Source: Candidatus Omnitrophota bacterium
GTDB taxonomy: Bacteria; Omnitrophota; Gorgyraeia; Zapsychrales; Fredricksoniimonadaceae
Reading direction: 5' to 3'
Length of the DNA: 64,000 nucleotides
NCBI GenBank assembly: GCA_015232565.1
Contig: JADFZK010000003.1
Location: forward strand, 64,540 to 128,539
Numbering within the stretch: position 1 is the stretch's first letter; the number at the start of each line of letters is the position of its first letter. Of this stretch, positions 25,201 through 52,668 are shown piece by piece. The notes below the pieces were generated by a model. The model worked only from the letters and a program-made list of their open reading frames with translations. It did no database searches and was not told where the DNA came from. A program made the position numbers and the translations under genes.

Positions 25201-28200
25201 AGCCGGGACTTGAGCGCCATACCACGCCCTCTCAACAGCATGGTCTTAATAGAGGAAGCCTGCGCCCTGGACTCCTCGATATCTCCGCGTTCAAAAGATT
25301 CCTGCATAACTGCGAATTTACCGCGGAAAATAGAAGCCGGCAAGCCCGGCTTGCCGCCCAGTCCGTTTCTTAATGCTTCAAAGAAACCCCTCATCGGTGC
25401 CAGCAGTGTCTGCATAACAGGCGGCAGTTCACTCCACTTCTCGGGAATACCAAAAGTCTCCACATAATGAGTCTTGATCTCTTCCGGCGAGAACTCTTTA
25501 TCGTAAATACCGGACAGAATATCGGCGATCTGCTGTAGCTCGCTGTTATTCTCCAAACGCGCCTGTTCCAAAGCGCCGGGCAGTTCGTTATCGCCGTGCT
25601 TGCTGATGATCAGTTTCTCTTCTTCGTGCATAAGCTCATGCAAAAATACCGCAGCGGAATCGAAATCCATTTCACCGCTCAACAAGAACTTGGTTAAAGC
25701 CCGGCCGGTATGAAATAACTCGTCTGTCGACAAAGCGGCCGAATTACGCTCTTCCAGGGCCGAAGTAGCAGTAATGCGTTTTTTATAACGCTGTTCTACA
25801 AAATTTATCAGTCCGGCTACGAACGAAGTGCTATCGGGATCCGCTTTAAAAACCAGCGAATACGTATCGGCCTTTCCCCCGGCCGCAACCTTGTTAAGTT
25901 TCTGGTCCAGTCCTATCACTTCCACACTAACGCCCCAACCGGACGCTCTTACCTGGAACTTGTTGGCGAGATCATCCATATCCTCTTTGGTAGCGCCCGA
26001 CTTAACGGCTTTTTCCCAAATCTTGTTAAAATCATTGGAAAATTTCTGTGCCTCGGCAATAGCCCGCTCAAAATCAACTGCCTTAACAGTAAAATCCGAT
26101 CCTGCCGCAACCTTACTCACTGTATTGCGGTCCAGAAACTCAACCGTTTGAATATCGCTTTGCGGGATCAAATAATTATCGCCATCCTTAACCAGGATCT
26201 TGTCGAAGAAGAACAGGCCTACCTGATTGCCTTCCTTATCGCGCAAACGGCCCTTTTCCCGATCGATCTCCGTGCCTTCAGCGAATGTGTTGGCACCGTA
26301 AACCAGGTCGCGAGCCAGCACCGACCGGGCCCGGACCACACCCATACCGGCATGGTCAACGCGATAGGTATCCACCGTTTCAATGCGCGAAGCTTTCCTG
26401 CCATCCGGACTTATAGCCCTTACCTGGGCCTTGGAAACATCAAATGCCCCGTCATGATTAGGCATATAGATATGTTCGCCGAATACCGCGGCCTTCACTT
26501 CTCCCTGCTGGCCGCGGATCACCAGGACCTTTTCGCCCTTGTCGTCGTTAGCAAACTCCACCTTGTCGCCGGCCTGTACATTAATGCCGGGCAATAACAC
26601 CGGCGCCTTGTTAACCACTTCACCAAACTTCTTTACCACTCTGCCATCCACCACTTCCATGCGGCTCTTCACAAATAGCTTCTCGTGCCGCATATCCGGC
26701 AATTGCACGTGGTCTTCGGTAACGGCATCAAAAGAAAAAGCCCGCGGGTCATTATCAATACTGGTCCTTTTATACAAAACCCCCTCAAAGATAACCCCCT
26801 TTATGATCTCCGCCTGTTGACCATTAAACGTAAACCGCTCGGTGATTATTTGCGCTTTACGGCCGTCCATATCGGGCATCGGCCGGCCGACAACCAAATT
26901 GTTTGCATCACTGGCCCCCACAGCCCGGGCAATAGCTTGCCGGCTGGCCGCAGTAACGCCCTTATAGAAGTTCGGATCGGCAATACCCTGCCCCTGGTCA
27001 AACTGGGAAACCAGCGCAACATTGATCGGAGCTTGCGGAGCACCTTTACTATCCATAACTTGCGGAACACCGTTACTGTCCATAACTTGCACCGACTGAT
27101 TCTGCGTATATTCAGGCGTTGCTCCATTCCAGGTAATACTGCCGCTTACCCAGCCCCTTACCATAAGAGGACCTTCCCAGGGGCGCACATTAGCAATAGC
27201 GCCATGCGTTATATAGCTCACCGGCCGCACCAGCGAACCGTCCTCACGCTTGCCGTTGCCATCGAAACGCGCCTTGATCCAGTCGGCCATGCTGGCGAAA
27301 ACACTGTAACCTTCATTTACCAGGCCGTTCTTCATGTCGGCCACCTGGCCGGCTTGCAAAAGCACCTTCCCGTCCCGGTCCATCCTTACGCCGTGGCCAT
27401 TCTCCAGCGCCACCAGAGAAATAAAAGAATAATCCTGACGGTTATTGTCCAAGATGGCTTCGTGATACCCTTCCCCCAAAGCGTGCGTAAAGATCCGGGC
27501 AAAGGAACCCCCGCCGTTCAAGGTTTTGTATTGATTAATGGCTCGTACAACGCTGGCCTTGTTGATGTCCTGAACAAACTTGTCTATAGCCTCCAGATTC
27601 ACTGTGCGGGCCACCACTGCTGTGCTGTGCACACTCTGCACGGAAGCGTCCTTGGCCATTTCTCCCATGATCTGTAACAAAGCACGCTTGGCTTCTTCTT
27701 CATTGCCATTTTTGTATAAATTGGCCAAAAGATCACGCCGGTCCTTGGATAAAGACGGATCGGCATTCTTCTCTTTCAAGCTGGTGACGGTAATGTATTC
27801 ACCCTTGGATCGTGTAACGTTAAACAACTTTTCTTTTTTAGTTTTAGGATTCAAAGAGTCCACGCGCAAAGCCGCCTGGTCATGGCCGAACTTGGGGCGC
27901 AAAGTATAGTCGCGAACAGTTACAAAACCCACGTTCTCAATAGAAACCGCCGCTTCCATAGCAGTCAAAATAATGACCCTTTTGCCCGCTATTGAAACCT
28001 CATTGCCGGACTGATCGATTATTTTACCCTCCCCAAGCAACTTCGCGGTCTTACCCATCCGGGAAGGATCCACCTTGACCGTTATCACATCGCCGCGATT
28101 CAAACCGGCAATATTTTCCCAGGCTTCATTCCGGGCAGGCCCCGAATTACTATTAAGCACAAGCACCTGCGTTTCCTTATCCTTCAGACTGTTGAAGAAA

Positions 28201-31200
28201 TCCTTAGCATCAGCGGCTATAGCTTCAGACACGGTCTGTTCCGGCCTAAATTCCGCCTTCCAATTGGTGTGCAGTTCGATCTCCGGCGACGGACCGTGCG
28301 GTTTGGAAAGGATATTTAAAAGTTTGGCCATGTCATTACCCGGCTCGGCAGTACCGGAGTAGCCGATCTTGCCCGGCATCAGGGTGAGCAATTCGGCCGA
28401 AGTTATCTCCCGGTCGTGGCCCTGTGCCACCAATTCCGCAAACCGGGGCAAATTGGTCGCAATGCCTTTCCTGTACACATAATCGTAAACACCCAAGACG
28501 CCGCGCATCTTATGCTTTAAACCATCCTTAGAGCTATAAACCCTGCCGCGCGCCTCCGCACCAAGGTTTTCCAAATACTCATAAATAATCAGCTCTACAT
28601 CGCCCTTCCTGTTGGTCTCGATAACATTATTAACTCGATGGATCTCGTTACGAAAAGACCAGGCGATCTCGTCTAAAAGCGGCGTTAAAACCCCTTCCTC
28701 CACCAATTTCTTGTGCCATTCGGTTTCCCCAAATTTCGCTGTTAACTCCTTCGTGAACTCTTCCTTGAACTTATCCGCGTTTATACCTCCCTCATCTATA
28801 TTGTCAACAATAGGTTTAACTTTTTCTTTGTTATCAGCTACTGTTTTGTCCTTTAACGCCAGGGTTCCAATAGCGTCTATCAAATGCGCCACGTCCTGCT
28901 GGCTCCGCTCTAATCTTTCGCGATATTCCCAGCCCCTTTGACTCAAGAAATCAGCTCCGTCAACGCTATTGCCCTTTATCATCGTTGGATTTAAAAGGAA
29001 ATTATGTTTTTCATCAATAAAAGTCAAAGTCTTGAACCAGGGATTGCTGGGATCCTGGGTGAAGTCCGTGCTGGCCATCACCTCCGACGTCAACTCGGCC
29101 GACTTCTCGCCTTTAAACTGCAAGCCGATCTCTTTAGCCTCGGCAAAAGTCAGCACCATAACCTTGCCCGATTCTCTCCCACCCACTATTTTGCCATCTG
29201 CCACTTCACCACGTGAGAACAAGTCACTGGCATTACAAGCTGTTGCGGCCTGGTTAGGATCGGCCTTTAAAAGGATAAAAGTAACTCCCGAGCCACTTTT
29301 TACTACGTATTTCATTAAAGCATCAAAAACGAACCTTTCCATCGTGGTTTTACCGCCCGCCATAGCCAAGGCCAATAATTGCGCTTCCATAGACCCGAGA
29401 TTGGCGACCGTGTCGATGGCATGGAACGAATAGTTCAAAAGATCGCGCAAATAATCACTTTGCTCCTTTGAGATCGAAGGAGTCTCGCCTTTCTTCGCTT
29501 GAGACTCAAAATACGTCAACAATTCTTTTTGCAGGCCTCGTTGAACCGTGCTCAAGCCGTCAGCGCCATCAATCTGTAGTTGACTATGCAATGCCAACTC
29601 CTGGCCCGCTTTCTGAATATCGGTTTCCACTTTATTCAGAAGAGTATGCCTGTCGAGAATAACGGATCTTTCAAATATCCGCAGTTCTCCGGCGCTTATC
29701 CTGAAATCACCACATATTTTGGTAAACAAGGCCTCCCATGTCCGGGCCTGCTGCTGAGGCGCCCCGGCAACATCGGGCATTTGCTTCTTTAAGAAACCCG
29801 CGGCATCCTCCGGCTTGGAATCTTTGCTCTGGTAAACCTTCAAGGCTTCACTCAGAGCATCCAGGGACTCTCTTAAACCGGTTAGACCACCGTCAATATT
29901 AAGCGCTTCCGCATTAACTTTTCTCAGATTCTGCCGGGCCGCCTGAACCATAGTGGTCAATTCTGCCGTAAGAGCAGGATCTGGTTCACCAGCCGTCTTC
30001 AGTTTGTCCACTATGGCCTTACGCTGGGTAAACACTTCAGCTATATTGCCATATCCGGCATGAGGGGCGATCTTATGAGCTGCGTTAAAGTTCTCAACCA
30101 GAGTTTGTTCGTTAACCTCGGACGCAGGCTTGTTAAGTTCACTTCTGATTGCATCCATATGCGGCTGAAGCTTGATCGCCTGACGAAGCAGGTCGGCATC
30201 CCGGTCATTCTCCAGTGCCTTTACAGCCAACAATTTACCGGCCTTGTCAAGATGTTCTTGTGCTTTCCGGGACATCTCCGCAGACTCCTCGCCCACGGCG
30301 GTCTTTTGTGCTGGCTCGGAGGTCTTGCCGGCGATCTCTGTTAAAGAAGCCGCCGTAGTATAGGCGATATCTCTTATGGACATCCGATGCTTGGCTATCA
30401 AAAGGCTGATCTCGCCAGTACCCCGTTCCGTCTGCGCCTTAGGCAATACGCTCTCAAGCTCGGCTATTCTTTGCTCCAGGGCCTTTATCCTGGACGCTAC
30501 TGGATCAACCTTACTCACAGCTTCCGGGCCAAGCCGGGTTATATCTGCGCCAGGGACTGCCGAGTTACGAGCGGCAACGCTGAACGGATTACCGCTGTCA
30601 TACACTTTGGTAACAACGATCTCACTGCCCAGCTTAGCCTGTGCCACCAGGATATGGTCCTTAAGCATATCCTTGACTTCGGAACTTATAGCTTCATTAC
30701 CCTCAATTAACCGGTGCATGTCGGCAATACGGGCGGCTAAAGCGGCCTTTTCAGTCGAAACATCCGCCGATTGGTTGGTACCTTTAAACTCCGCCCGTTG
30801 TTCGCGCCCATAACGCTCATGCGTCAGCAGGTTCAACTGGGCAATAGCATTGGCCGCCAAATTAGCATCGGAAGAACGTGCCGCAAACTGGTAACTTTTA
30901 ATAAGCCGGTCGTTAACAGCGTCGGCCAGGTTAAAGTTGCCGTCAGTTGCCGCTTGTGCGGCGATCTTGCGTAAATTTAAATTCTCGCCATACGCAGTAT
31001 CCACCACATAGATCTGCACTTCCGGCCGCTCTGTAAGAGTCTGCAATTCGGCCTGCAATCTACTTATCTCAGAACCAGTACCGTCCGGATTATCCTTCCG
31101 CATACGCTCAATCTCAGATTCGATCTTGCCGATCTTCTTAAGCGTTTCATGAACAGGCTCAACAGCGCTCTCTAGCTGTTGCTTTTGTTGCTCAAGAGCG

Positions 31201-34200
31201 GTTCTTTGATTTTGCAAATCCCCTGAAACAGACGCATCTTTTGTAGACTTGATTTGCCGATCAAGAGCGGCGATCGTACTCTCTATGCCCCGCACCACAG
31301 CCTTTACCTGCGCCGCCACCCTCGGATTATCAACCTTCTCCCGCAAGCCCTGGCGCAATAATGCGTCCGGCTTGCCGCCTATCTGTAACGCCTCCACATC
31401 TTTAACTACAACCGAGGCCATTTCGCTGGATATCCTGTTTTCTGCCAGGGCTTTCTCCAGGACACCGGCGACTGCCTTAACCGCTACCTCCACGCTCTGA
31501 GTATTTGGTGACCGTAGCAATACTAATTGCTCCGAAACTTTTTCAATTACATCATTGGCCGCGCTGGCGGCAGAACTTACCGCCCGGTCGCCGGAATTAC
31601 GTAACGGCAACAATTCCAACTTCCGAGCCTGCAGGCGGATCTTTACAAAATCTTCTTTACCCGCATTGTCTGTGGCTGGCTTTACACCGCTGGCTCGCAC
31701 AAAAGCTGTGTCCAGATAAAAATCGCCCTCGGACTTTAATGCAACGGCCTTTTCACGTGCGGCTTTCGCCTTGTCTGTTTCACCGGAAGCTTCCAGAGAA
31801 TTGGCGCGGTCCAGCAAAACCTCGGCTTCAATAAGAATTTTCCGGCCCAGCGCCCTATCCAGCTCCACCGGATCTTTTGAATTTTTCAGCACATATTCCT
31901 GCTCACCCAACCGGGCACTCTGTGCCGCCTGATAAGCTTGATTGGCATTATCTTTAAGCTTGGAAATTTCTGGCGCGCTTGCACCTTTTTCCGCACCAAG
32001 CTGTAATGCTAATTGGGCTTGCTGTAATTCCGCTTCGCGCAGACGACTGACGGCTCTCTGCTCCGCCATGGAGGCAAAGACCTTGGGCGCCGCCACTGCC
32101 GGAGCTGGCGCAACTATTGGCGCCGGTACGGCAGAAGGCAGATGAACAGCGGCCGGCTGAGGCACAGGCGCCGCTGACGCCGCTGGAACCGTAGCCGCGG
32201 CTTCTGCGGCCTGCCGCTGTTCCATGTTTTTGCGAATGCCCTCTATATTCTTTTTCAATCGTAAAATCTGGGCACCCTTGTCATAATGGCCCTTTGTTTT
32301 GGGCTTTAGTTTCCCCAGATCAGTTGTCGCCTGGTTGAGCAATCTCTCAAGATGTGCTAATTCTTGAGCCGGAGAACGCCCCTGTGCGGGCTTTGCTGTG
32401 GCCATCTTGGCAGAGGTGCCATCAGCCTTAGGCTTAACAGTCGGCGTGGAAACCACCGCATCCGCGGGACGAGCCGCCGGAGCCATTTCGGCATCGGAAC
32501 GGGCCTGACCAGCGGCCGGTTCTAATTGCGGAACGCCCGTTTCGGCCCGGCCGGCTTCGCCGGGTTTAGCTACCTCGGACGGCCTGGACGCTCCAGGCAA
32601 AGAAGCTGACGGTTCATGTGCCGCCGCTGGGGCCGCGGCCGGCTCAACCGCCGCAGAGCCCGGCTTGCCGGCACCCGCAACATTAGCCGATTCAGGGGCA
32701 GAAGAAGATTTGGGAGAAAGCTCAACAGAATTTCTAGCCAGCTCCGGAGCAGGAGAAGCCGCCGCTGGGCTGGCTGAAACCGGTGCCGCCGCAGAGGCTG
32801 AGGCCGCGGCCGGCTCAGCCGCTGAAGACCCTGGCTTTCCGGCACCCACGGCATCAGCCGGTCCGGAAGCAGAGCCAGATTTAGGAGCAAGAGCAGACGC
32901 CGTCGGAGCCGCAGCACCCGGCACAGGAGGCAGAACTGCAGGCGCCGCCGCCGGAGCTACAACCGGTGCAGAAGGCGCCGCCGCGGGCGTTCCCGCCGAA
33001 GCACCCGCCGTTGAAGCAGGCGCCGAAGCCGCGCCGGAACCCGCCGGTTTCGCCGCCGCTGGCGCAATAACGGGCGCCGCAACAGGCGCCGGAACAGGAG
33101 GCATAACTGCAGGCGCCACCACCGGTGCCGCCGCACCCGGCACAGGAGGCGCCGTAGCGCGGCCCGCCAGATTAACAGGCGCTGGGAGCGGGGCTGGAAC
33201 AGCCGCCACTCTGGGCGCCGGCGCCACAGTTGCCGCAGGCGCACCCGCCGCCGGGCCAGCTACAGCCGGAGCGGTGGCCGGCGCAGGCGCCAAAGCCCCT
33301 GCCGGTACCACAGTCTGCAACAAAGACACCAGCTTGGCCTGCTGTTGCAGCTGCCTTTTGAGAGACGGCGATTTACCCATATTCCCGCCCGGCACAAAGA
33401 ACAAGCTTACAAAAGCGCCCTGCTTGGCCAGCTCGGTGCGCTTAACCTTAACCATATCTTCAATAACTTTATTGTCTATGGCCGCATTGCCGCTAAGCAG
33501 TCCGGCCATATCGGCCCGAGCTTCTTTTTCCAAACGAGCCACCATCCCCGGAGCAATATAAGGAAACGCCTTGTACACCAAAGCGTCGTTCAAGGACAAT
33601 ACGCCAATAGTACCCGCCATACCAAAGCCATGATAAATCCCGGAAAGACGCCCGGCGCTCCTGGCCAGCAAGCCGGTGGGCTTGGCCGAGATCGCCGATA
33701 ACGGCATCTGCAACACACCCAGCGTGGGCCCCAGGCTGTAACCGCTTTGCAAGCCGCCCACCACGTCTTCCTTTAACATCTCGCCAAAGCCGGTCCGTTT
33801 CAGGCGGCCTTCTTTGTCGAATTGCGGCAAGCCGCTGCCATCCAGCGCCAGCGGCCGGAAAGTATTAAAAGACTGCACCCCGGCCTCAGCCCAGCTGATG
33901 CGGCTCCCGATCGTATTCTCTACTCCGTAATTCACTATTCTCTGCACCGGCAGGCTTACCAGGCGCCAGGCCGGCATCATAACCGCAAAGTCCAGGGAAG
34001 CGGCGATCGACATCTTTACGCTCATCTGCGGATAAAGGCTCATGTTCAAAAGGTTGGCATCCAGCTGAACCATGTCTGGCCCCACCATTACATTGCGCGA
34101 CCAGGTCTGTAAGACCGGCCGGGTAATAGCCAGAACGCTCAGCAACCCGCCCGCCGTAGCACCATAACCCACATAGCCCAGGCGCTCTTGCCAGGACATG

Positions 34201-37200
34201 TTTTTCTGTGGATCGGCATACGAAGCCGCCCACCCGCCAGCCGCGCCAACAGCGGTTCCGCCAGCCAGCCTTTTTACCGCGCCCGACGTTAAAAGATCTT
34301 TAAAATACACACCGGCGGTTATCTGCCGGTTGGCCGCGACTGTGCCGGCAGTCTGGAACGGCGCCGAAGAATACGGTGAGAGCTCAAAAACAGCCTTCAC
34401 CCGGTCTACAAAAACATCCAGCCGCGACGTAGGCGGACCCATGGGTTTAGCCGCCGGCTCACCCCACACCGCCCGTTGTGCCCAGCGCGGCACGATCTTA
34501 ACGCCAGCCGAGGCCAAAAGACCAAAGCCGGCATCAAAAATCATCTGCCGGTTGATTACATTGGTATCGCTGTAATTTCTCTTCCAGGCCTCGTTACCGC
34601 CTTGGGCCAGATACCGGTCGGTCATACCACCGCCCACACTCACCAGCGTATAGCCCGCCGCGTCGTAAAGAGAGCCCCAGGCATTGGTTTTCCAGAAACT
34701 ACCAGGTAAGATATTCTTTACACCACCCACCACCAGGCCGCCCGCCACGCCCACACCGGCATCGACCAGTACTTGCCGGGTCTTGATGTAATCGTTCCAC
34801 ACATCGCGGCCGCTAAACTTGGTAAGCACCGCGCCGCGCAGTACATTCACCGCCATACCGCCAATAGCTTTACCCGCCAGTTCCCGGGCGTAACTGGATT
34901 GTATGCCCGCGAAAGACCGTGATAACTGGGCCCCGCCGCCCAAAGCCAAGCCCGCCAGAGCGCCCCAGCCCCAGCTCTCGGCTCCCTTAATAAAACCGTT
35001 ATCTTCTTTACGATACAATTTCTCGTTCACCACGCTGTCTATGCCCAGCTGGATATTGCCCGCGGAAAGAGCCGAATTAACAAAAGCCTGCCGAGCCGAT
35101 ACCTGGGCGGCATCTTTTACCGCCGCCGGCAACATGCTCCTGGCCAACAAAGTGGTCACCGGGACTATCGCCAATATGGCGGCATCCTGCTTGAGCGTTA
35201 ACAATTCGCCGTTAACCAGCAATGAACCCGCGTTAGACAAAGCCGCCACGCGCACGCCGCTGGCCATGGATTCCAGCGCCCGGGCCGAGAACCCATTGCC
35301 CATCACACCCGGGTTCCGCATACCAAGCACAGCCAAAGGCACGAAAGCGGCGCCGATACCCGCATCTTTGAGGATTTGCCCGCCGGTTACATAATCAAAT
35401 ACGGTTCCGCCTTGCGCCCGGTTGCTGGTAACGCCATAAGCCACATTAGCAGTCGCTCCGCCAGCGGATAAAACCGTTAAGCCCACCGCCCATTTTTGCC
35501 CCTCAGTCAAAACCACAGGAGTAGAGGCTCCCAGCTTGGAAGCGACAAAAGTAAACCCTCGGGAAGTCGCCACGGCATTGCCCAAGCGCGGAACACCACT
35601 GCTAATTGCTGTTGAAGTTCTCGCCGCCAAACCACCGGCACCAAAAACGCCCAACCCCGAGATAGCCTTGGCACCCAGATTAAAAATGCCCATAGCCAGA
35701 ATAGCCGAATTCATTTCATCTTGACCTAAGCCCCTGCCGGTGTTGTACAGGCTATAATTATCCAATGCTACAGTTGAAACGGCCCCGATGGCAGATCCAG
35801 CTCCTGCAACACCCGTCAACCTTCCTCCCAAATACGCGTAGGCACCCTTACCCAAAGTTCCACCCGCATAAAGGAAAAACGAATCCCAACCCTTATTCTC
35901 TGGCCGAACCGACGCGTTCTCAGCATCACTAAAAATGTCCAACACATGACTATAACGCTCGGGTTTATTTTCATCGGTATACAACCGGCTATACCACCCG
36001 TTATAAACCCAGGTCTTACCCAGATCTCGCATCTCTTTGTTGCCTACATAAGGGATAAGACCACCCGCATACATAGCGGCCCCTATAAAGGGCTTTGTAG
36101 CTCCCCATAACGCTTCACCCGCTTTTCGTGAACCCCAGGACCATGGATTATAGGAAGGGTCATAAGTCTTGTCAGACTTGAAGCTGTTAAAGAATACTCT
36201 GGCCCCATTCGTCTCAAATATCTCCGCCACTCCATTTGTAAGGCCGGTAATATTCTTGTCCAGCTTGCGCATATCAAGCAAAATGTTCTGATAATAATCC
36301 TTTTGCGCATCGGTCAAATTGCCGGCGTTGATCTCACCTTGCAATGTAGCGCCAAAATCTTTCATTTCCTGTTGTCTTTGCTTTTCATTCTTGGTCAAAG
36401 CATCTTTCAGTTCGGAAGACCGCTTGTCCAAATTACGCTTAAGATCTATGGCCGGGATCTGGTTTTCTTCACCATTACCGGCAATAACTATAGATTTTCC
36501 GGTCTGTTCGGCCAGGTCCCTCTTCTGACGCTCAATACTTTCCAGCTCGGCCACAATAGCATCGGCCTCGGCCTTCATTTTTTGCCCCGCCGCCCAGAAT
36601 TGCACAGATAGGGGAGCCGCCTTAAGCACCTCGGCGATAACCTTCCTTTGTATATCGTCTTCGTTAACCCACAGTTCTTTCCCGTGGTCCGGCACCGTTA
36701 ATTTGTCTTCCAGTTTGGGGATCACCGCATTATCCATCAACTCCGGCAAACTATTCTCAAGCATGAACTGATCGAGCTCACGCAGTTTGGCGGCATAATT
36801 GTCCTGGGCTTCCTTAAACAACTTCTTCTCTTTGGCATCGTTAACCACAAGCCCGAACCAGTCGAAAGTATTCATTTTCTTATGAAATTCAAAACGACCG
36901 ATATAGAACATGTCTCTGGCGTAAGACGTCTGCTCCTTCAGCGCCGAAAACTGCGCCTGTTTCTCGGGAGTCATAACCGGAATCGGTAAATCCAACTTGG
37001 GCGCCGCATCTCGTATAGCGGTCTTGACGATCCTGGCGCCGTCATAATTACGGTAATCAACTATAGCCTGGCCATTCTCATCGAAAAAGATCGATTTCTG
37101 GCCCGACCCCAAAACCGCCGTCACCAGGTTTACCGGCTGAACACCATCGGCAGTCAGGCCGCGTTCACGCTGATACGTCACCTGTTCTATACCCTTACCG

Positions 37201-40200
37201 CCCAAACCAATAACCGCTACCTTGCGCAGATCACCATGGGCGGCGCCGCTAAAGTTGTAAAAATCATAAGAATCCACCATCAATCTCTGTTTACCGGTGC
37301 CCCATAAGGCGCCATCCGAATACACATTGTTCACAGTTAAATATCGGCGTGCTATTTCGGCGCCCTGCGCCTCTTCCCGGGTTTGCGGAGCCGACTTAAA
37401 TTTACTCTTGGCCTCCAGCCCTTCACTGGCAAAAAGCGGCAAAACAGCCTTACCGTAAACCCCCACCGTTATAACCGGCGAACCGTTCTCAATACGAGCG
37501 CTGGCCGGTGTAAAATTCTGCCCGCCATCCACCGATAAGCCATTAACCTGGAATTGATCCCAAACCGCGCCCACCACCCAACGCCCTTTTTCATCCTTCA
37601 CATAATCGCCGTACTGAGAGATCTCTTGCCCGGCCTTCATGTTAAATACCACCTTCTTATCCACCAATCCTCTTCCACTAGTTAATACCGGCGTAACCAT
37701 TGCTATGAGCGCATCGTCCAGAATGGCTGAAGTTGTAACAACCGCCGCATAGTCCAATTCGGAACTGCCATTCTCCTTAAAACGCACCTGATCGCTGTCT
37801 ACCCCAAAAGCATAACGCGACGCCTGCACAACCTTGCCATTCTTGTCCACACCCACCTGAAACACCAGGTTAGGCGTGTCATCTATACGGGTAATGTTAA
37901 AATCCCTGAAATCTCCGGAGAGCGTAGCCTGCGCAACATTAAGATTAGGCAAAGAAAAATCGGCTTTCTGCATACCATCCAAAGAAGCTATCCCGGCGTT
38001 TGTAGTCAGCAAACCTTCCCGTGCACGCACCGGGATCTTTAAAGCATTCAAGCCAGCCGTCGATTTCTCCTCATTCTTTTTTTCCAGCGGCTGTTTTATA
38101 ACCTCCAGCGACGTCTGCGGAAGAAGCGCAGGATTACTTCCACCAACAAGAATAGACGGATTACCAAATTCATCCAAACCAGCTCCAACACTGGCCTCAA
38201 CATCATTCAACAGCAAAGACTTAACATCAAAAGACTGCCACTTCTTTCCGCCATTGGTCACCCAAAAGTCTACTCCGCGCAATTCAGCTTTACCTTTAAG
38301 GATTTCCTTGTCGTCAACCGCGTACTTCAGGAACGACGCATCCGTGTTAATATTGGACCACCCCGACCGTAAACCCGGCGTGACCACAAAACCGTTCTGG
38401 TTGATCTCGGCCGTTTTCCCGTCCAGACTGCCCTTTTCGTTATTTACGGCTATGACCTTACCGGTAACTGCGAACTCGCCATTTTCCTGAACCTGGCCCT
38501 GCACGCTGGAAACAAAATCCTTAAAATTGAGGCCGCTGAAAGAATGGTATACTCCAGAGAACATGGGCGCAAAAGAAACCGACTGTTCCTGCAGGCTTTG
38601 CGGGCTGGTAACATTATCAAAATTTAGAACTGCGATCTTGGCGCTGTCAAACCAGCCTACCCGAGAGGCGTAGATCAAAGGCAAGACTTCGCTCGTTAAA
38701 AAACCGGATCCTGGCGGACGCAAGCCGCCATTACTATTATCCCCGGCCGCCTCCGGACTGCCCGTCTTGTTATCCGCATTGCTCTCCGGCGGTTTCTGCA
38801 TTATCTGCGAAGTGTAGAAAAATCTTTCCTGGCCATCCGCGCTGGCCTGAGCATAAAGATCGGTAAAATTCTCCGTCCGTCCGTAAAATACCGCGCTATC
38901 AACTAACTTCCCCTTGGCGTCGAAAACTTTACCGTCCCCTTTTATGCGCTGTGTAATGGGCGTAAACCTTTCATCCAGGCTCCAGGTGCCGTGTTCCCCG
39001 GTAAGACCCTCGGTGCCGCTTAAGGTCCAGCCCCGGGGCTTGCCTTCCGGTTCCGCGGTCTCGTTAACAGTCACCGCATGGCCGCTTTTTGTGCCATCCG
39101 GCAACACCATTACCATGCTCTTGGTGCCCGCCGTTAAAGAGTTCCAAAAAGTTTCCTGCCGCTCCACTGTACTTAACGGGAACAAAGCCCCGTTCTGCCC
39201 TATCTCCAGGCCGCCGCCCCAGAACGTATTGTTGGCACCGTATAAAGATATCGGCGATCCTTCGGTTATGGTCGGCCCGAAATAAGCCTTGGCACCGGGA
39301 TTAAAATTGATATCCTGCAAAGCGCCTTTCTGGAACGCAAACTCCAAAGAGCCGAAAGCCTGGCCAAAAGCGGTTTCACCCGGAATTTTGTCCAGGTTGA
39401 ATATTGCCTGGGTATTTATCGGCTTGGAGGCCGTGCCACCCTCAGATTTGCCTGGCAAAGCCAGCAATCCGAAGCCAACACCACCCAGCACCAGGGTATT
39501 GCCTTCCCCGCGAGCGCGGTCCAAATAAACCCTATGCTCCGGAGAATCCAGGTCCTCCCTATATGTAGTATAGGTACCGTTAACAGTCGTGCCATCCACA
39601 TTGCCCAAGGGCGGCACATACCGGAACTCGCCGTTTTTGTCTACTAACAAATGATTAACTATGAAATCCTCCACTATGACCTTGCTGGCGTCCGCAGGAT
39701 TCTGCATTAAATTACGACGTTCCAACGTACTGAACACTTCGGCAGGTTGCCAGTTGCCATTCTCCTGTTGGTCCGCCATTATGCCGGAGGCATTACCCAT
39801 TCTGTCTCCGGTAAGTATAAAGCGGGTAACCGGCAGGTCAGACTTGCCGTCGGCGCTATAATCGGGAGTAGTAAAGACCATCTCGTCATCTTGCCAGGCT
39901 GAATCCCGACTGTATACTCCTTTACCGTCACTAAAGTTAAGTTCCGGCAGGAAAGCATTGTTGCCCGCCTGTATCCATACCGGCTGGCTGGCGTACAATA
40001 TGGCGCCCGTCCGGTTATCCAAAGCCACCGGAGCATCGCCTTCCAGACGGTAATGAAAATTACCGTATTGCTCGTTAACCCGGGTGATCTGACCGTAAGC
40101 ATTGATCACCGGAGTTAGCCCGGCCTCAAAGCGCGAAACGAATTGCGGGCCGTTAGGATCCGGCGGCGAAGAAAGCGCTTTACCGAGCTCGTTCCAAACA

Positions 40201-43200
40201 GCATTTTCGCTAATATCCGTAGAATTATCCGCCACACCAAAGCGCCAGCCGGAACCAATAAAATTCGGCAAACCAAATGCGTCTATAAAAGATGCCTCGG
40301 GCCGGGTCCAGACAGTGTGTGTAGGCGATACCTGGTCCTGATATTTCCCCTCGATCTCAACCGACGTCATTTCCTTGGCCTGGCCAAAGAAAGGCACATT
40401 GGTAACCAGTTTACCGTTCTCGTCCCGGGTTTCCCAGTTTTGGCCATTCCAATCAAAAGCCGCGCCCTTTGGCGCTTGGGCATAACCCGGTGTCCGGACA
40501 ATTCTCTTTATACCATCCAGCTCATCCTCAAACACTTGTTTATCAGGGTCAAAGGTCAGCTCCGTGGCGGCAGTGCCTTTAATCCATGAAACCCGGCCAT
40601 TACTGTCGACCTCTTTACCGCCCTTGATCAAATACATGCTTTCAATAAAACCATTGATCAGCTCAAAATTACCCGGAACTTTAACCGCGTCCTCCGTTGC
40701 CAGCCTTTTATCGCCCACCGACCACGACTCGGGAGTTTTAGGCATCAGGGTGTTGCCGGTTAAAAGCGCCCGGCCTTTATCGCCCTCCAATGCAAAACCC
40801 ACCAGGTACGGAAACGCCCCGCCGTTAGGTAAATTTATCGGCCGGCCAAAAGTGCCTCTATTGCTGACGTCTTTGCTGGGAGGGCCCGGCAACTCATTAG
40901 TAGTTATAATATTGCCGTGGCTTAAATAACCCTCGGTGGTTATCGAGAACGGCTGGATACGATCGATCACCGGCTTATCGCTTTGCGATTTGTCGGGATC
41001 AATATTATCCAGCCCCACCACAATGCCGGCTTTATTCTCTGCCGAGAAATCGGCCGACCAGCGCGGCTGGCTCGGGAATACATTTATGCCTGCGGCATCG
41101 GTTTGAGCCTGAAAATATTTGCCGCTCTTGACCACCAGGCTGGCACGTCCTTCCGGGTCTACCCCGATATATGAATGCGGCTTATCACCACCGGTAACAA
41201 TATCCAGCCCGTACACCATGGCCGCCCCGGTCAAAGCCGCCGAACCATATCCGTTCCCACCCTGAACAAACGTGGGAGAATATTTCACGCTCACTCCCTC
41301 ATTAAAGAGCGGCATATAAAAAAATGTATCGGTGGGAGCTTCGTCCTTGAATAGAGTCCGGGTGTCGCCAACCGTTTCACTGTTGAGGTCTTTACCCTTC
41401 TTGCCCAGGATATTCACCTGCGATTGCTGTCCGGCAAAACTGGAGCCGCGGCTTGCGTCCCGCAACCAGCCCGCCAGCTCCGCAAAATCACTCCCCATGT
41501 AACTGTTATAATTACCGGAAGCTTGGTCGCCAAAGAAGTCCGCACCGAAAATTGTAGCAAAACCGGTAAGGCCGAAAGCTTTAAGGTCATAAAGACGACG
41601 CCCTTCACGAACTATGTTCAGTGAACGCCCCGCCCCGCTGGCCAAAGACAGGTCGAAGGTGGATTTACTGCCAGTCAGCACAAAATTCCGAATGAACGCT
41701 TTTTGGGTGTCGCCCAGCTTGCTAAGGTCGGTAAGCCCCTTGGCTTCAAGATCCAGGGTCATGGGCCCGCCGGCCAGGTTCCTGCGGGCGCTGACTTCCA
41801 ACTTGTTATCTCCGACCACGCGAAAATCATCGGTAGTAAGGTCCAAAAGGTTGCGGCCCGCTCTTTTTTCCCGGTACACATTGCCGAAATCCATACCGTC
41901 CAGCGAACCGCGGAAAGTGCTAGTGCCCTGGTAAAAGAAAAGCCTCCCGTAAGAGCCATCTTTTACCGAAGACTCATACGTATAAGGCTCGTCTTTTTCC
42001 TGGGGTGCCGGCTTTTGCGGAACAGGCGCAATTGCAGTATCATCTGGCTTGTCCAGCCGATAATCATACCCGGAATATATACCCGAAGAAGCCGCCATAT
42101 CCTGCGCATTGACCCCAGGATACATGTACGAAGAAATATCCTGCACCGGGGCCACCGGCTGATCCTGGGGCTTGACGGCGGCCTGAACCGGCGGACGGGG
42201 AGCTGGCAGATCCTTCAGATTCAGAGAACCGCCCTCGGAATCGCTTACAAACAACTTGTCTTTGCCAGCAACCTTAACAGTGGTAAGCATGTTATTTGAA
42301 ATATTGCTGGTAAACGACCGCCAGTAACCCGGCTTACCCTGCCGGGATTCAAAGCCTTCATTTACGACCTGTTCATGTGGAACGAAACCCTGCGTTATGG
42401 GTTTCAGATTATCTTCTTTATCCCTTAAAGGATCGCCATACAAGTCGTCCTTAAACGACTTGTCGCGCGTATATTTACCATAGCGCATACCTTTGGCGTC
42501 GATACTGACCGGCACGTTTATAGTTACCGAATCCGCCGCGTACAAACTTTGGGCATAAGCCTGTCCGCCCAGGCCCCACAAACCGTTCTGGCCGGCCTTG
42601 CCCAGCACCGCCACTGAAATAAGCTGGCGCATTACGTCTTCCCTGGTACCGTTATTAAACATGGCCTGGCCACCAAACGAGTACACATCGCCTGTCTTCA
42701 AAGGAAAAGCCCCGCAACAATAATGCAAAGCGCTAAAGTCAGCCGAAAACCGACTCCCCGGAAGATACCCGTTACCATCATCCTTGCGGTCCTTTACCCC
42801 GGTGAATTGAGCGACCATTTTGTAACCACTATCATTATAGAACGTGGTTATACTGCGATTGCCTTCGGTGGTCTTGGCGCCGGTAAAAGTTTTATCCATG
42901 CCCAGGGGGCCGTTCTTTACATTCCTGCGGGCCTGTTTCTCGAGCTCTTTATCCGAATACTCGGCGCCTATATCCAAAGCTTCCAGCCGCCGGACCTCGG
43001 CCCTGATCAAAGCCGGGTCTTTGGCGCGCTCGGCCAAATTCTCCACCGCCTGCTTGTACAAAAGCTTGTATTCGGTAGGCTCAACACCATACATGGCATC
43101 CATTTTTCTCAGCCGCCGGATCTCGTCCTCCAGAGCCTTGGAATTCACCGCCTGCTGATCACGCAGACGCTGATGCGCCATAGACAAAGCGCCGGTCGAG

Positions 43201-46200
43201 ACCGCCGCAATATCCTGCCCGAACACATATGTGTTCGCCATCTTCACTATATTACCGAACGAGGCCGCACCTACCTGCGAATACTGATCGCTCCGGTAAT
43301 TCAGGCTGGACAGTTCCCAGCGCCGGGTAGAATCCAGGATCCATTGCATTTCCACGTCTTCATCACTACGGCGCTGATCGTCGGGCAAAGCGGCGTTGGC
43401 GGCTTTGGCCTCTTCCTTTTGCTTCTTCGCGGTAATAGCGGCCTGAATAGAAAAGCCCGACATACCCGCCAAATGCTCGCCAAAAGCCAGCATTTCCAAA
43501 GGATTAGCGAAACGAAAACTGGTCTGGGAATTACCAAATTCGAGGTACCGGGTGCCGTAAACAATGTCTTTACCCATTACAACTTGAGAAAAAAGAGCGT
43601 CCGGAACCGCATTGTCACCGGGAAAGATTATGCCGTCCAGAGCCGCAACCGCCCTGGCCTTCTCCAGCGGTTTGGCCCCATTATCCTGGGCCCCCTTTGC
43701 GGCTTGATCATGAGTATAGCCATTGTCCGCACTTCTGCGCTGGATCTTGCCCTTGTTCTTTGGGTCATTGCCAAAGATAATCGCTTTATCCCATAATTCC
43801 CGAGCCTCGGGATGATCCTCGGCAAACTTGCAATCCCAAAGATCAAGTTTTTCGTCCACCTCACTCTTGATACTGGAATAATCATCCTTCTTCGCCAGAA
43901 TTGCAGTTCTTTCTTCCTCGGTTTTCGCGGCCATCAGTTTAGCTTTGTCATCAGGAGTTAAGACGCTGGAGAAATTGTCTACTGCCTCCCGAACATACTC
44001 ACTTTGCGCCTGGTCGCGCTCTTTCATATATTGATCCGCCAGCCGTGCACCCTGCCGCACATCTTCGTTGATCTTGGGCTGGTCCAAAGCATCCAAAGCC
44101 CCCAGCGTAACACCGGCCATAAAATTAGCCATCGTGCCCGCCACTATATTGTATTGCGCCGCCAGATAAGCATGGTTACGGGACTGATCATCTTCGCCGA
44201 TGATCTCTTCCCGCAAAGTGTCAAAAGCCCAGGCCGAAAGCGAGCTTAATACCGCGCTTCCCACGCGCACCTTGAGGTTGTCCCACACACTACCGGGGCC
44301 TGCGGCCAGTCGTTCGCCCGGGGTTTGCATAAGGTTACCCGCGCCATAGGAAACCACCCCCGCCACACCCTGCCCTACCGCTTTGGACGCCAAAGACTCC
44401 GGATCACCGCCCACCAGATAACGCGCCAGACCGCCCGCCAACTGGCCAATAGAACTTTGCGCTCCGGCCCGGGCAAAGCCCTTTAAAGCCGTCCAGACAT
44501 TGCTCCGGGAAAAAGAAATCTCCGACCTCGCCAGCCGGTCATTAGCCACCGCATCCCGCGCGGCCATGACCTCAGGTTTAGACACATCCAGCTTGCCGTC
44601 CTTAAACATGCCGTTCAGATCGGTCACATGAGCCTGCATTTTGTCCAGGCCTTCCAGCCGGGTCATCTCTAGTGTTTCCTTTTTGGTAAGGCCAACCTCG
44701 CCATCAAAAATGTTAGCGTCGTCTTGAGTTTTAAGTAAAGCCAGCCGTTTCTGGGCGTCATTGTCCATAAGGTTTTTGAACTTGCCGGCTTTTTGCTCCT
44801 TCGCCATATCGCCGGCGATCTCATTTTTGGTAATTTGCTCGGATTCCGCCAAAAACGCTTTGCCGGCGGCATCTCTTTGCCCCTGGTTAAAGTCCCGGAA
44901 CTCCGGGCTGGCCAAGATTTCTTTGGCCAATTTCTGATCGTGCTGGGCATCCCCGGTTCTTTCAATAAGGCGGTCGTTTACCTTATCCGCACCGTTTATG
45001 GGTTTGCCATTATCATCGAATTCCGGAACGAACTGATCCTTGGATTTCACAATGGCTTCGTTCTCAGCCGCTTGCTCCCTGGAGGCATCCTGCATAGTGT
45101 CAGTCTGCACCCCCACCATATCTTTAAAATAAGTAATATCGTGCCCGGCAACCTGGGCGGCCACGGCGTCAAAGGCCACCGCGGTTCCGGTAATGGCCAG
45201 GCCGGCGGCCAGCGAACCGGCCACCCCGCCTATCGTCTGGCTGGCAATGATACAACCCTTGTCGTCCTTGTCGCAATCAAAAGTCTCGGCTATAACCAGC
45301 TGAACCTCGTAGCTTACCCCAGCGCCTACCAGCGCTACTGCGAAAGACGTGGCAAAATCCTGGACCATACCGGAAGCAAAACCGGCCAGAGCACTGGTCC
45401 CGGCGTCCTTGGCGTTCTCGATCCCCGATACTCCGCCGCTCACACCAACGCTCAAGGCTGTACTTAAAGAAATACTAAGAATGGTTCCCGTCTTTTCCGA
45501 ACAGTTGCCCGACATTACGCAAGCTTGCGCTACCGCACCTACGAATTTACTGATCCCGATGCTCGCTATGGCCATGGCGATCACGGTTTGTATTTTGGTC
45601 GCGATCATGCCCATCTTGGCCAGGAAGATCAGGATCTTTTGGATCGCGTTAAGTGTTTCTCCCGCTTTTTGAGCCGCTATGGCGGCATTCGCCGCACCGC
45701 TCAAAGCCGCGCCCACGCCAAGGGAAACCACCAGCATGGCAAAGCTCAACCCCACATCGGTCCAGATCTGGCTGGTGCTCACCAGGCCCGGCAGGTCGCC
45801 GGAACGGTCGCGCCACTTGTTGCCCCACACAAAAGTAAGGGTGGTGTCGTCCACCGCGGTAAAATCCGCCCGCACAAAAGTGCCCATGTCTTTCGCCAGC
45901 GCAAAACCGGAGAGTTTGGCAATAAATTCGGCTTTGGGGCTTTGGCTGATCTTGCCGATATCGTTAAAGAAAACCGTGTCTTCCGTTACCTTGGTGACCG
46001 TAACGAAGTGCTCCTCTTTAAAATGCGCCACGAACGGCGTGCGGAGTTTTACCACATCATCCGGGGCCAAACGGGCACCGCTGTATTTCAGGCCGAAAGC
46101 CTTGGCGGCCTGGCTGATTGAAAAGAGGGAAATCTTAAGTTTGGGTTCCCCGGCCTTGATAACATTGCTCAAAAGGTCGGTAGAAATGGTAAGCACCGCC

Positions 46201-46913
46201 AGCTCTTCCAGCGGCTTATTTATCCCGGCATTAGCCAGAATGTCCTGCAGAGCATAAACGCCGCAATTCAGCACGTTCAGGCTGGGCTTATTAAGCCATA
46301 CAGCGATATCTTTGATTTGCGTGGGCGTAAACTTGGCCAAAGCGTTGATCAACAGCGCTTTGCCGTCTTTTTTCTGGTCGTCAAGTCTAAGCGATACGCT
46401 CTCGGCCTTCTGGCGGTTAACGTCGGTCAGCAACTGGTCCACACTGCCCGCTACCTGGCGAGCGGCCAGTTCGGCCGGGGTAATATCCGGGTTCTGCATT
46501 ACCAGCGGAGCCTTGTTGCCCCAGATAATGGCCGGATTATAGTTAAACGCCCAGCTGATCTGGTCGGGGATGAAAACACAAAGCACCGTAAGCGCAATAG
46601 CCCGGATCCAGTTATTGAACCGGGAAGCAAACTGACCTTCCGGGTAACCGGCCGTTACACCTTCGCCAGCAGGAGGAAACTGATCGCCACCCGGCACGTT
46701 AGCATTATAGCCAGCAAAACCGGCGCCAGCCAGGTCCGGAAATTGCCTAACCAGCTCGGAATCCGAAAGTTGCACATTGTCATTTGCCGCAGAGGACGGC
46801 TCAACCGGGGAAATTTCAGCAGATTGGGGGAGGGCAAAAGAAGAAATATCCTCTTTATTATTAAAAGAAGATTCAGAATTGTTAGAAGACTGTGGTTTAC
46901 CGTTTTCAGTCAT
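1..46913 (-). CDS. Giant multidomain protein, partial. The N-terminus is in the window; the C-terminus runs past the window start. At least 15,637 codons.
   Basis: No stop is reported in minus frame 2 (coordinate 46913 mod 3) across 46.9 kb. All listed minus ORFs in 1-46913 lie in the other two frames, and the plus ORFs are short antisense shadows. ATG at 46911-46913 follows an in-frame TGA 48 nt upstream. GC3-rich codon periodicity holds throughout. A reverse-complement read gives continuous protein-like sequence with domain motifs. Confidence 0.8.
9060..9900 (-). other. Clan GH-A (GH5-like) TIM-barrel glycoside hydrolase domain within the giant protein
   Basis: …[19 protein letters not shown]… carries the NEP acid/base motif (codons at 9586-9606). 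…LNWYRH… follows, then …[12 protein letters not shown]… carries the nucleophile motif (codons near 9285-9300). The spacing is typical of GH5-type enzymes. Confidence 0.55.
13600..15430 (-). other. Low-complexity Ser/Ala/Val/Asn region followed by a Pro/Ala/Thr-rich linker (15160-15430) in the giant protein
   Basis: The translation shows …[23 protein letters not shown]… repeats and …[43 protein letters not shown]…. The DNA has imperfect 24-bp tandem repeats at about 14590-14720, and the Arg-rich plus-strand shadow ORF 15162..15380 overlaps it. Confidence 0.55.
21850..22100 (-). other. Degenerate M23/LytM-like or hybrid-barrel segment
   Basis: …[73 protein letters not shown]… follows the M23 beta-barrel spacing but lacks the HxH metal ligands. 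Confidence 0.25.
24000..24480 (-). other. GNAT-like acetyltransferase segment
   Basis: …[82 protein letters not shown]… has the beta-strand/V-shaped fold pattern and an R/Q-x-x-G-x-G/A acetyl-CoA motif (KLGLGAAL). Confidence 0.4.
25626..25640 (-). other. HExxH (HELMH) zinc-metallopeptidase-type motif
   Basis: Minus-strand codons CAT GAG CTT ATG CAC at 25626-25640 give …[16 protein letters not shown]…. This is a motif only. Confidence 0.25.
29330..29370 (-). other. P-loop-like motif (LAMAGGKTT) resembling helicase / SecA motif I
   Basis: Codons GGC GGT AAA ACC ACG at 29343-29357 on the minus strand give GGKTT. The surrounding sequence is …[42 protein letters not shown]…. Confidence 0.25.
32150..33330 (-). 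other. Ala/Pro/Val/Gly-rich low-complexity linker of the giant protein
   Basis: Minus-strand translation is dominated by AP/APA/PAV repeats (…[32 protein letters not shown]…). The plus strand here gives the A/G-rich shadow ORF 32665..33561. The DNA is built from GCC/GGC/GCG triplet runs. Confidence 0.6.
45100..45800 (-). other. Cluster of hydrophobic segments (predicted transmembrane anchor region) after the peptidase-like domain
   Basis: Long runs of A/G/V/I/L-rich segments (…[20 protein letters not shown]…, …[21 protein letters not shown]…, …[14 protein letters not shown]…) read between verified landmarks at 45748-45812 and 45098-45146. Confidence 0.4.
45950..46330 (-). other. Papain-fold (C39-like) cysteine peptidase motif region at the N-terminus of the giant protein
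   Basis: Read on the minus strand: ...[16 protein letters not shown]... (Cys codon at 46263-46265), then about 80 aa later ...[21 protein letters not shown]... (His near 46010). The spacing and context match a C39-type Cys/His dyad. Confidence 0.4.
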
Positions 46914-47074
46914 ATTTATACCGAGTTTGTGAAACAATGGAAGTATAGCACATATATGCTGTCAAGCAAATTTTTGGCAAAAATAAATGCCCTCACAACC
47001 CATTTCTCAACAATGCCTTACATTCCATGCAGAATCTTTTTTCCAAAAAAAATTGCATTAAATCTCTTAATATA

Positions 47075-52435: not shown

Positions 52436-52668
52436 TATTTGCCTTTCTTGAAAAGCGCCGCATCCAGCGGCCGCGGGCGGTGAAAATTCGGGTTGAGCTG
52501 GCCGTCAAGCGGGCCAGCGGCGGTTAAAACCGCTTCGTGGTCGTAACGGCGTTCGGCCAGGTCCATCATTATCCAGCGCACAGTCTGCACCATCCCGAAA
52601 AGCAGTAACATAAAGACCGCGCAAGCAAAACAAAACTCGATAATGGATTGCCCTTTAGCGCCGCTCAT
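52435..52668 (-). CDS. Small TadE-like pseudopilin (77 aa)
   Basis: MSGAKGQSIIEFCFACAVFMLLLFGMV has a G-x4-EF motif followed by a hydrophobic helix. Confidence 0.45.
   Translation of the reverse strand: MSGAKGQSIIEFCFACAVFMLLLFGMVQTVRWIMMDLAERRYDHEAVLTAAGPLDGQLNPNFHRPRPLDAALFKKGK

Follow-up and report, generated by a model that had tools for sequence, protein, structure and literature searches.

A C39 peptidase domain at the head of an Omnitrophota giant protein and a conserved leader-like motif that may be its own cleavage site

What does a peptidase-like domain do at the N-terminus of a protein of at least 15,637 residues, and which chain would it cut? This question is raised by a 64,000-nucleotide stretch of DNA from a Candidatus Omnitrophota bacterium (GTDB lineage Bacteria; Omnitrophota; Gorgyraeia; Zapsychrales; Fredricksoniimonadaceae; GenBank assembly GCA_015232565.1, contig JADFZK010000003.1, positions 64,540 to 128,539 of the forward strand), which is referred to below as the window. 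Its longest open reading frame (ORF) encodes a giant protein. A preliminary description of the DNA had read a C39-like peptidase of the papain fold from two short strings near the start of that protein, and had suggested that the peptidase serves in self-processing or in the cleavage of double-glycine-type substrates. We analyzed the domain, its surroundings in the giant protein, and its relatives. The reading that we put forward is that the protein carries a genuine C39 peptidase, which would be exported and would have its own chain as the most likely substrate, with a single self-cut behind the peptidase core; we assign this reading a probability of about 0.5.

The giant ORF lies on the minus strand, is open from position 46961 to base 3 (15,653 codons), and runs off the window. 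When residues are counted from the Met at the ATG at 46913, the string NCGVYAL occupies residues 216–222, and the codon of Cys217 lies at 46263–46265 (minus strand), exactly where the preliminary description had placed it. His302 is found within EEHFVTV (codon 46008–46010), and its distance of 85 residues from the Cys is in fair agreement with the value of about 80 given earlier. Asp318 is found within FFNDIG (codon 45960–45962), 16 residues after the His. The plus-strand ORFs across this region run antisense to this frame, whose protein sequence is conserved in 57 genomes.

The Pfam profile PF03412 (Peptidase_C39) matched residues 216–339 at E = 4.3e-10, with a score of 40 bits where the gathering cut-off is 22, and the alignment covered positions 12–126 of the 133 in the hidden Markov model (HMM). 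The search with Peptidase_C39 and related papain-clan profiles that had been proposed as a check was therefore significant, above the curated Pfam threshold, and no other papain-clan Pfam family matched the N-terminal region of the giant protein at E ≤ 1. The bounds first given for the domain, 45950–46330, located it properly, but the lower bound was too short because the Pfam domain extends to residue 339 (position 45897), about 50 nucleotides further. The best partial match in NCBIfam was the peptidase part of TIGR03796 (NHLP bacteriocin exporter), at 28.6 bits against a cut-off of 853. Such a score, far below the full-length cut-off, is expected of a protein that is not an ATP-binding cassette (ABC) transporter. 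The only other NCBIfam match was FapD (E = 0.18), and all of these matches were partial and below threshold.

An AlphaFold2 model of residues 96–400 (m659d0acbd86d, built on 26 sequences) gave a mean predicted local distance difference test score (pLDDT) of 80, with means of 86–97 for the 10-residue blocks over the C39 core. With this predicted structure as the query, Foldseek placed C39 or C39-like structures in all of the first 17 places against the PDB, comprising LahT150 (6mpz), PCAT1, the C39-like domain (CLD) of HlyB (3zua, 7sgr), and the peptidase domain of ComA. The best E value was 1.8e-6, and the target-normalized template modeling (TM) score was about 0.70. This fold comparison was needed because the sequence-only search of the PDB was weak (6mpz at E = 0.044, or E = 0.016 with a profile). 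In the family-profile alignment, LNCGVYAL fell on the LECGAASL of LahT, which holds the catalytic Cys, so that Cys217 has the place expected for C39, in an xCG motif where helix alpha-1 begins. The catalytic residues His101 and Asp117 of LahT are 16 apart (PMC6363468), the same spacing as that of His302 and Asp318. The domain of the giant protein almost certainly belongs to the C39 family.

We examined the conservation of the triad among the relatives. All of the 25 word-indexed homologues carry PF03412 and keep the Cys, His, and Asp. An exhaustive profile search returned 961 cluster representatives at E ≤ 1e-3, 206 of them at E ≤ 1e-30. This search was used for conservation because the pattern of our genome scan includes the Cys motif, which makes the Cys counts of that scan circular. 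For the counts, 135 new cluster representatives were chosen by whole-profile score only and aligned by hmmsearch. The Cys column held Cys in 129 of 133 sequences, the His column held His in 126 of 129, and the third column held Asp in 96, Glu in 15, and Asn in 7 of 128. The Cys and His, on whose conservation the preliminary description had made its claim depend, are thus kept. Ser replaces the Cys in only four relatives (P0075, P0080, P0118, and P0137), all of which are stand-alone or differently fused. The papain-fold, C39-like peptidase proposed for the N-terminus is borne out by the profile, the predicted fold, and the conserved triad together. Because the triad is kept across the family, proteolysis is credible, and the domain is probably catalytically active.

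About 10 residues past the C39 core begins a second conserved element, which resembles a double-glycine leader. Its residues are F351 (−15), V354 (−12), L359 (−7), V362 (−4), W363 (−3), G364 (−2), and N365 (−1), followed by K366, and the codon of Gly364 lies at 45822–45824. Leaders cleaved by C39 peptidases have the consensus L at −12, E at −8, L at −7, and V/I at −4, and end in Gly-Gly, Gly-Ala, or Gly-Ser (PMC6363468). The sister subfamily of the window protein has the consensus L[ST]..E[AS]K.[IV][LM]G[AGS], which equals the published leader consensus at 6 of 7 positions, and in a MAFFT alignment the FVWGN of the window is in register with this string. The residues found in the two subfamilies are compared in Table 1. 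In the set of 135 representatives, Gly was found at −2 in 85/88, Val or Ile at −4 in 84/88, and Val, Leu, or Ile at −12 in 87/95. More distant relatives carry leader-like strings about 20–30 residues after the catalytic Asp (e.g. LSPAESKKILGA, LSDKEAQGIMGA, and LTKEEASGILGG), and a search with a loose pattern located such a string at the corresponding point of over 50 more distant representatives. The chance of meeting L-[ST]-x-x-E-x-x-x-[IV]-x-G-[GAS], estimated from the composition of the ORF with the family counted as a single event, was about 1.6e-6 per position and about 6e-5 per 40-residue stretch.

Table 1. Residues at the positions of the leader-like motif in the sister subfamily (B, n = 69) and in the subfamily of the window protein (A, n = 107).
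Position	Subfamily B	Subfamily A
−15	L/A/I/F	F/Y
−12	L/V/I	V/I
−11	S/T	P/S
−8	E in 55/69	M/L
−5	variable	F
−4	I/V	V/I
−3	L/K/M	W
−2	G in 68/69	G in 107/107
−1	A/S/G in 69/69	D/N/S

In the model, residues 356–361 (−10 to −5) form a two-turn helix and residues 362–365 (−4 to −1) are extended. This agrees with the leader bound in 6mpz, which is helical from −4 to −11 and linear from −1 to −3. The block means of pLDDT were 68–78 over residues 346–365, and pLDDT itself is below 50 at residues 364–379, so that the boundary between order and disorder falls at the end of the motif.

The motif occurs once. A position-specific scoring matrix of the motif, run over the visible 15,637 residues, found one site at 31.6 bits, a score inflated by the inclusion of the window's own motif in the matrix; the next score was −0.1 and the maximum among shuffled sequences was 6.5, and the absence of other sites is unaffected by that inclusion. 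The matrix of subfamily B found nothing above the shuffles in the visible ORF. Canonical double-glycine leaders were not enriched there either (strict pattern, 0 found and 0.1 expected; relaxed pattern, 1 found and 2.8 expected). Internal repeats, sought as possible repeated processing sites, were absent from the giant ORF by self-BLAST at E ≤ 1e-5. The suggestion that the giant protein processes itself into several fragments is thus unsupported, with a single site in the visible 15,637 residues. The existence of a conserved leader-like motif in the chain of the peptidase itself lends indirect support to the more general guess of self-processing or of a double-glycine-type substrate.

Four independent relatives (P0075, P0118, P0137, and P0080) end exactly at ...AF[VI]WG. 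In the DNA of two of the four, the stops are real codons inside contigs (e.g. tgg ggg taa in L059). In all four the catalytic Cys is replaced by Ser, the His is missing as well in three, and no signal segment is present in any. These catalytically dead relatives are not themselves self-cleaving, but they show that the module naturally ends at the conserved Gly.

The loci of the catalytically dead relatives include L059, 664–1383, and L060, 2390–4786. In P0080 the module is fused to a metallopeptidase-like region (precomputed Peptidase_U49; weak M48 match), and its gene adjoins one for Pepco, which is reported to be a protease-activated defense effector (bioRxiv 10.1101/2025.11.14.688446). Another relative, P0072 (3237 residues), has three internal C39 copies, one at about 600–770 and an adjacent pair at about 1640–2010; the first is followed by LETQEAQAIRGA, and the sequences after the other two are less clear. 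In P0095 and P0116, which are complete at about 5,000 residues, the last 200 or so residues contain a papain-reminiscent DNCAVAAL...NYHTIRLL...D. This possible second Cys/His domain gave no Pfam match at the C-terminus of P0095.

The location of the peptidase was examined through the segment that precedes it. The C39 core stands within a conserved module of residues 97–372, which opens with a hydrophobic segment that the preliminary description had not mentioned. Basic residues precede this segment and an acidic residue follows it. It ends in a possible signal peptidase I site, at which Ala or Ser occupies −3 in 121/125 relatives and Ala occupies −1 in 121/125. In distant relatives (e.g. P0121 and P0072) the homologous segment begins within the first 10–30 residues or so, its last three residues are AQA or AWA, and these read as textbook Sec signal peptides. 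Because the segment resembles an export signal, the C39 domain most likely lies beyond the cytoplasmic membrane; the predicted route is Sec and the predicted destination the periplasmic side. Cys217 is the sole Cys in residues 123–365, which is consistent with an extracytoplasmic site, and the visible part of the giant ORF contains 35 Cys in all (0.2%).

From these features we infer export, catalytic activity, and cleavage, in the following order. The head would be exported behind the signal-like segment, and the C39 core would fold. Residues 351–365 would then lie in the substrate groove of their own peptidase as a leader peptide does, and Cys217 would cut once, at or beside Gly364 (N365↓K366). 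If signal peptidase also cuts after SWA122, the cut would detach a protease head of residues 123–365, and the remaining giant chain would start with KW.D.S..LPGL, just ahead of the first membrane segment. That cleavage takes place in cis at the motif of residues 351–365 is, in our estimate, a little short of an even chance. The fuller proposal, in which a built-in leader makes the exported head self-releasing and one autocatalytic cut at Gly364 both frees a periplasmic protease of about 27 kDa and creates the mature N-terminus of the giant protein, is offered tentatively.

Several points, besides the inflated score of the motif matrix, weigh against this proposal. Some 100 residues precede the hydrophobic segment of the window protein, an unusual distance from the N-terminus for a signal peptide that is to be cleaved. 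At −1 the subfamily of the window has Asn, Asp, or Ser (Asn in the window), which is non-canonical in comparison with Gly, Ala, or Ser. At −7 the same subfamily usually has Gln or Lys (Leu in the window), and LahT150 requires a hydrophobic residue there. The canonical oxyanion Gln at Cys−6 is absent, and position 211 of the window protein is Ser. Gln occupies this position in 2/59 of the closer set and is outside the seven commonest residues among 132 relatives. A conserved Gln or Asn that could form the oxyanion hole at Cys−6 was sought among the relatives, and none was found. The co-crystal study of LahT150 doubts the role of this Gln, which lies 4.3 Å from the oxyanion (PMC6363468), and the missing Gln is therefore a shortcoming of the domain and not a disqualification. 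The stand-alone relatives end at Gly, one residue short of the canonical scissile bond, so that the register is uncertain by one residue. They have also lost the Cys and, in most cases, the His while keeping the motif, and the segment may therefore be structural, independently of any cleavage.

The strongest competitor to self-cleavage, which we nevertheless regard as unlikely, is an active C39 peptidase that acts in trans, cutting the giant protein into several pieces or processing other proteins. Such action was proposed by West-Roberts et al. 2023 (bioRxiv 10.1101/2023.11.21.568195), and the motif would then be incidental. The conserved triad accords with it, a head freed in the periplasm could act on other chains, and LahT150 tolerates many different residues past its cut site. 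However, the visible 15,637 residues, which may be only about a third of the protein or less, contain no second site of the family motif or of a canonical leader, and the window showed no gene for a double-glycine-leader peptide. The Flp-type G↓xxxxEY signals of the small genes upstream are those of prepilin peptidases. The six proteins that they encode were considered as C39 substrates and rejected, because they have class III signals of the Flp type (G/A↓Q..EY) and lack a leader helix with Gly-Gly.

The leader-like segment might instead be an uncut pseudo-substrate or structural lid, which would hold the peptidase in check until displaced by a signal, or would do no more than complete the fold. 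The Asn or Asp at −1, present in roughly two of every three members of the window's subfamily and non-canonical for C39, would suit a lid, as would the AFVWG retained at the C-terminus of the dead stand-alone relatives, where the motif is kept without cleavage. Those same relatives end at the motif as a cleavage product would, however, and the chain of the window protein becomes disordered exactly past the Gly. The sister subfamily, furthermore, has the canonical Gly-Ala, Gly-Gly, or Gly-Ser in 69/69. We consider an uncut lid improbable.

It is very improbable that the domain is a non-catalytic, C39-like module of the HlyB style, serving as a docking site or chaperone for the secretion of the giant protein, a role that West-Roberts et al. 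2023 also mention (bioRxiv 10.1101/2023.11.21.568195). The structural matches include the HlyB domain (3zua, 7sgr), and the oxyanion Gln is missing, but the second argument is weakened by the doubt over this Gln even in LahT, at 4.3 Å (PMC6363468). Pseudo-peptidases are those without the catalytic residues, such as the AMS/PCATs that lack activity (PMC6363468), whereas Cys, His, and Asp are strongly conserved here, and the ORF contains no ABC transporter domains onto which the module could dock. Finally, a chance likeness of Cys...His...Asp in unrelated or non-coding sequence can be dismissed, as we found no point in its support, while the profile match exceeds the curated threshold, the confident predicted fold has specific matches in the PDB, 206 cluster representatives fall at E ≤ 1e-30, and the ORF is open across 15,653 codons.

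The coordinates of the parts of the giant protein and of the neighboring genes are summarized in Table 2.

Table 2. Features of the giant protein and of its genomic neighborhood in the window (positions of the window; aa, residues of the giant protein or protein lengths).
Feature	Position	Strand	Basis or remark
Giant ORF	3..46913	−	First ATG 46911–46913; at least 15,637 aa; C-terminus beyond the window
N-terminal tail, aa 1–96	46626..46913	−	Polar, low complexity; length variable among relatives
Signal-peptide-like or signal-anchor segment, aa 97–122, then FNYNP	46548..46625	−	Hydrophobic over aa 103–123; hydropathy peak at aa 105–123
Linker, aa 123–205 (FNYNP, long helix, beta-hairpin, helix)	46299..46547	−	AlphaFold model
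C39 cysteine peptidase core, aa 206–341	45891..46298	−	Pfam, AlphaFold, Foldseek, conserved triad
Double-glycine-leader-like motif, aa 351–365, then KW	45819..45863	−	Proposed self-cleavage site
Connector, aa 366–386, conserved then disordered	45756..45818	−	pLDDT, conservation
Ala/Gly-rich hydrophobic segment cluster, aa 387–586	45156..45755	−	Kyte-Doolittle
T2SSF, half-size, two genes	47584–48483, 48502–49359	−	
Three large ORFs, 827, 503, and 751 aa	49952–52435, 52665–54176, 56890–59145	−	Within the cluster; no Pfam match at E ≤ 1e-3
Six tandem small genes, 107–135 aa	54176–56530	−	Flp/Tad-type class III signal
AbiEii-type nucleotidyltransferase toxin gene	59509–60264	−	E = 2.5e-26; in the middle of the pilus cluster
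T2SSM/PilO	61000–61533	−	
PilM-PilN fusion	61530–62945	−	
T2SSK	62950–63948	−	

The tail ahead of the signal-like segment is presumably cytoplasmic. In the relatives, the conserved motif that closes the hydrophobic segment begins anywhere from residue 35 to residue 139, which means that the length of the tail varies widely. That the tail is translated is shown by SD.[DE]L[IV].QFPDL, which the window protein has in common with P0001, its closest homologue. Residues 65–81 of the tail (46671–46721) hold a string with a leader-like beginning, LSxxEL. We rejected this string as a double-glycine leader because its spacing to a Gly-Ala-Gly is unfit and the Gly-Ala-Gly is unconserved even in P0001.

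In the linker, the block means of pLDDT were 47–57 at residues 126–145 and 66–94 at residues 146–205, and the conserved residues are Y125, N126, P127, and L162. In the connector, W367 is conserved in at least 85% and LPGL is the majority consensus. The Kyte-Doolittle peaks beyond it lie at residues 387–405, 427–467, 524–542, and 561–586, in a region that is poorly conserved among the relatives. The preliminary description had stated that hydrophobic anchor segments follow the domain immediately. Such segments do follow it, but the first, at residues 387–405, begins about 45 residues past the core. Further clusters of hydrophobic segments were found at about residues 3700–4060, 7870–7930, 10590–11150, and 14240–14960 of the giant ORF. 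C39 is the sole domain that Pfam recognizes in the first 15,637 residues. Residues 401–15637 gave no match at E ≤ 1e-3, the weak matches in residues 401–1400 were limited to DUF6402 and HlyD_D23 (both below threshold), and neither ABC_membrane nor ABC_tran matched anywhere in residues 1–15637.

The genome scan, with one genome per species, gave 57 related loci, nearly all of which are labeled Omnitrophota or Omnitrophica, the best with 72% identity. In 51/57 loci the ORF is still open where the fetched DNA stops, and its length exceeds 3,600 residues where the flank allows. The Cys motif lies 156–245 residues from the ORF start, with the exception of one ORF cut by the start of its contig. The first homologues obtained were 297–610 residues long, and the idea that they are separate small genes was rejected because the genome loci show ORFs of more than 3,600 residues; these homologues are fragments or broken calls. 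At one locus (L001, 10001–21707, on a 91-kb ENA contig) the homologue was called with 568 residues and is followed by about 14 ORFs on the same strand, which has the appearance of one giant gene split up by frameshift errors. Such fragmented calls explain why the first database homologues looked short.

Upstream of the giant ORF and on the same strand lies a cluster resembling those for pili and type II secretion, together with six small genes of the prepilin type. The products of the small genes have a short basic leader, G/A↓Q(S/N)..EY, and a hydrophobic helix (e.g. MMKKNSKG↓QSTLEYAILIIII). None of the genes in the window was identified as a secretion ATPase, a secretin, or a prepilin peptidase. 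Just upstream of the AbiEii-type gene is an ORF of 218 residues without a Pfam match (60273–60929, minus strand), which may be its AbiEi-type partner.

A C39 domain in this position is already known from other giant proteins of this phylum. The N-terminal regions of full-length Omnitrophota giant genes have been described as lacking identifiable domains except for C39 near predicted signal peptides, and West-Roberts et al. 2023 suggested that C39 might cut the giant protein itself or some different substrate, and reported adjoining genes of the type II secretion-like and class III signal-peptide kinds (bioRxiv 10.1101/2023.11.21.568195). A preprint of 2026 includes a PF03412 architecture cluster in its listing of Omnitrophota giant proteins (bioRxiv 10.64898/2026.06.07.730766). 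The protein of the window has the same placement, with the Cys at residue 217 of at least 15,637 beside a signal-like segment, and the same lineage and neighborhood. It is another member of this group and does not differ from the published description. The two preprints (bioRxiv 10.1101/2023.11.21.568195 and 10.64898/2026.06.07.730766) mention no double-glycine motif, cleavage site, missing Gln, or number of sites, and no wider search for reports of a motif in cis was made. To that description we add the motif in cis, which is unique in the ORF, the absence of the Gln, and a likely location outside the cytoplasm.

The peptidase domains of the PCAT/AMS transporters (LahT150, 6mpz; PCAT1, 4ry2 and 6v9z; ComA, 5xe8) share the fold with the domain of the giant protein (TM about 0.70), as well as the Cys-His-Asp triad with 16 residues from His to Asp. 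The leader-type element is also alike in its hydrophobic residues at −4 and −12 and its Gly at −2. In contrast, the giant protein has no fused ABC membrane and ATPase domains and therefore does not have the architecture of these transporters, and its C39 domain is predicted to lie outside the cytoplasm, whereas theirs is cytoplasmic. The distance from Cys to His is 85 residues here and 74 there, the Gln at Cys−6 is absent here, and an extra helix-hairpin-helix stands ahead of the core. Moreover, enzyme and candidate substrate belong to one chain, with the substrate on the C-terminal side, and −1 is Asn, Asp, or Ser in the window's subfamily. The CLD of HlyB, from the RTX exporters (3zua, 7sgr), has the same fold, and both it and the present domain are tied to a very large secreted or surface protein. 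The CLD lacks the catalytic Cys, whereas the Cys of the giant protein is present (conserved in 129/133) with no ABC transporter attached.

A defined cut that frees part of a huge exported protein is made by the cysteine protease domain of MARTX and TcdB (MEROPS C80), and by LapG on the adhesin LapA. The triggers are inositol hexakisphosphate for C80 and c-di-GMP signaling for LapG. The likeness to the cut proposed here would be one of logic only, as the folds and families are unrelated to C39 and the motifs differ.

With chains that run to tens of thousands of residues, the giant proteins of Omnitrophota rank with the largest known, and published work has left undecided whether they remain one chain or are cut up. 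The motif in cis sharpens the statement that C39 may cleave the giant protein to the prediction of one Cys217-dependent cut at ...FVWG-N↓K.... If this is true, the question of whether giant proteins are processed would be answered by one defined cut and not by fragmentation. The domain would then be the first known case of a C39 peptidase that works in cis, in an extracytoplasmic location, and with no ABC transporter, and the C39 family would extend beyond the removal of leaders by ABC exporters.

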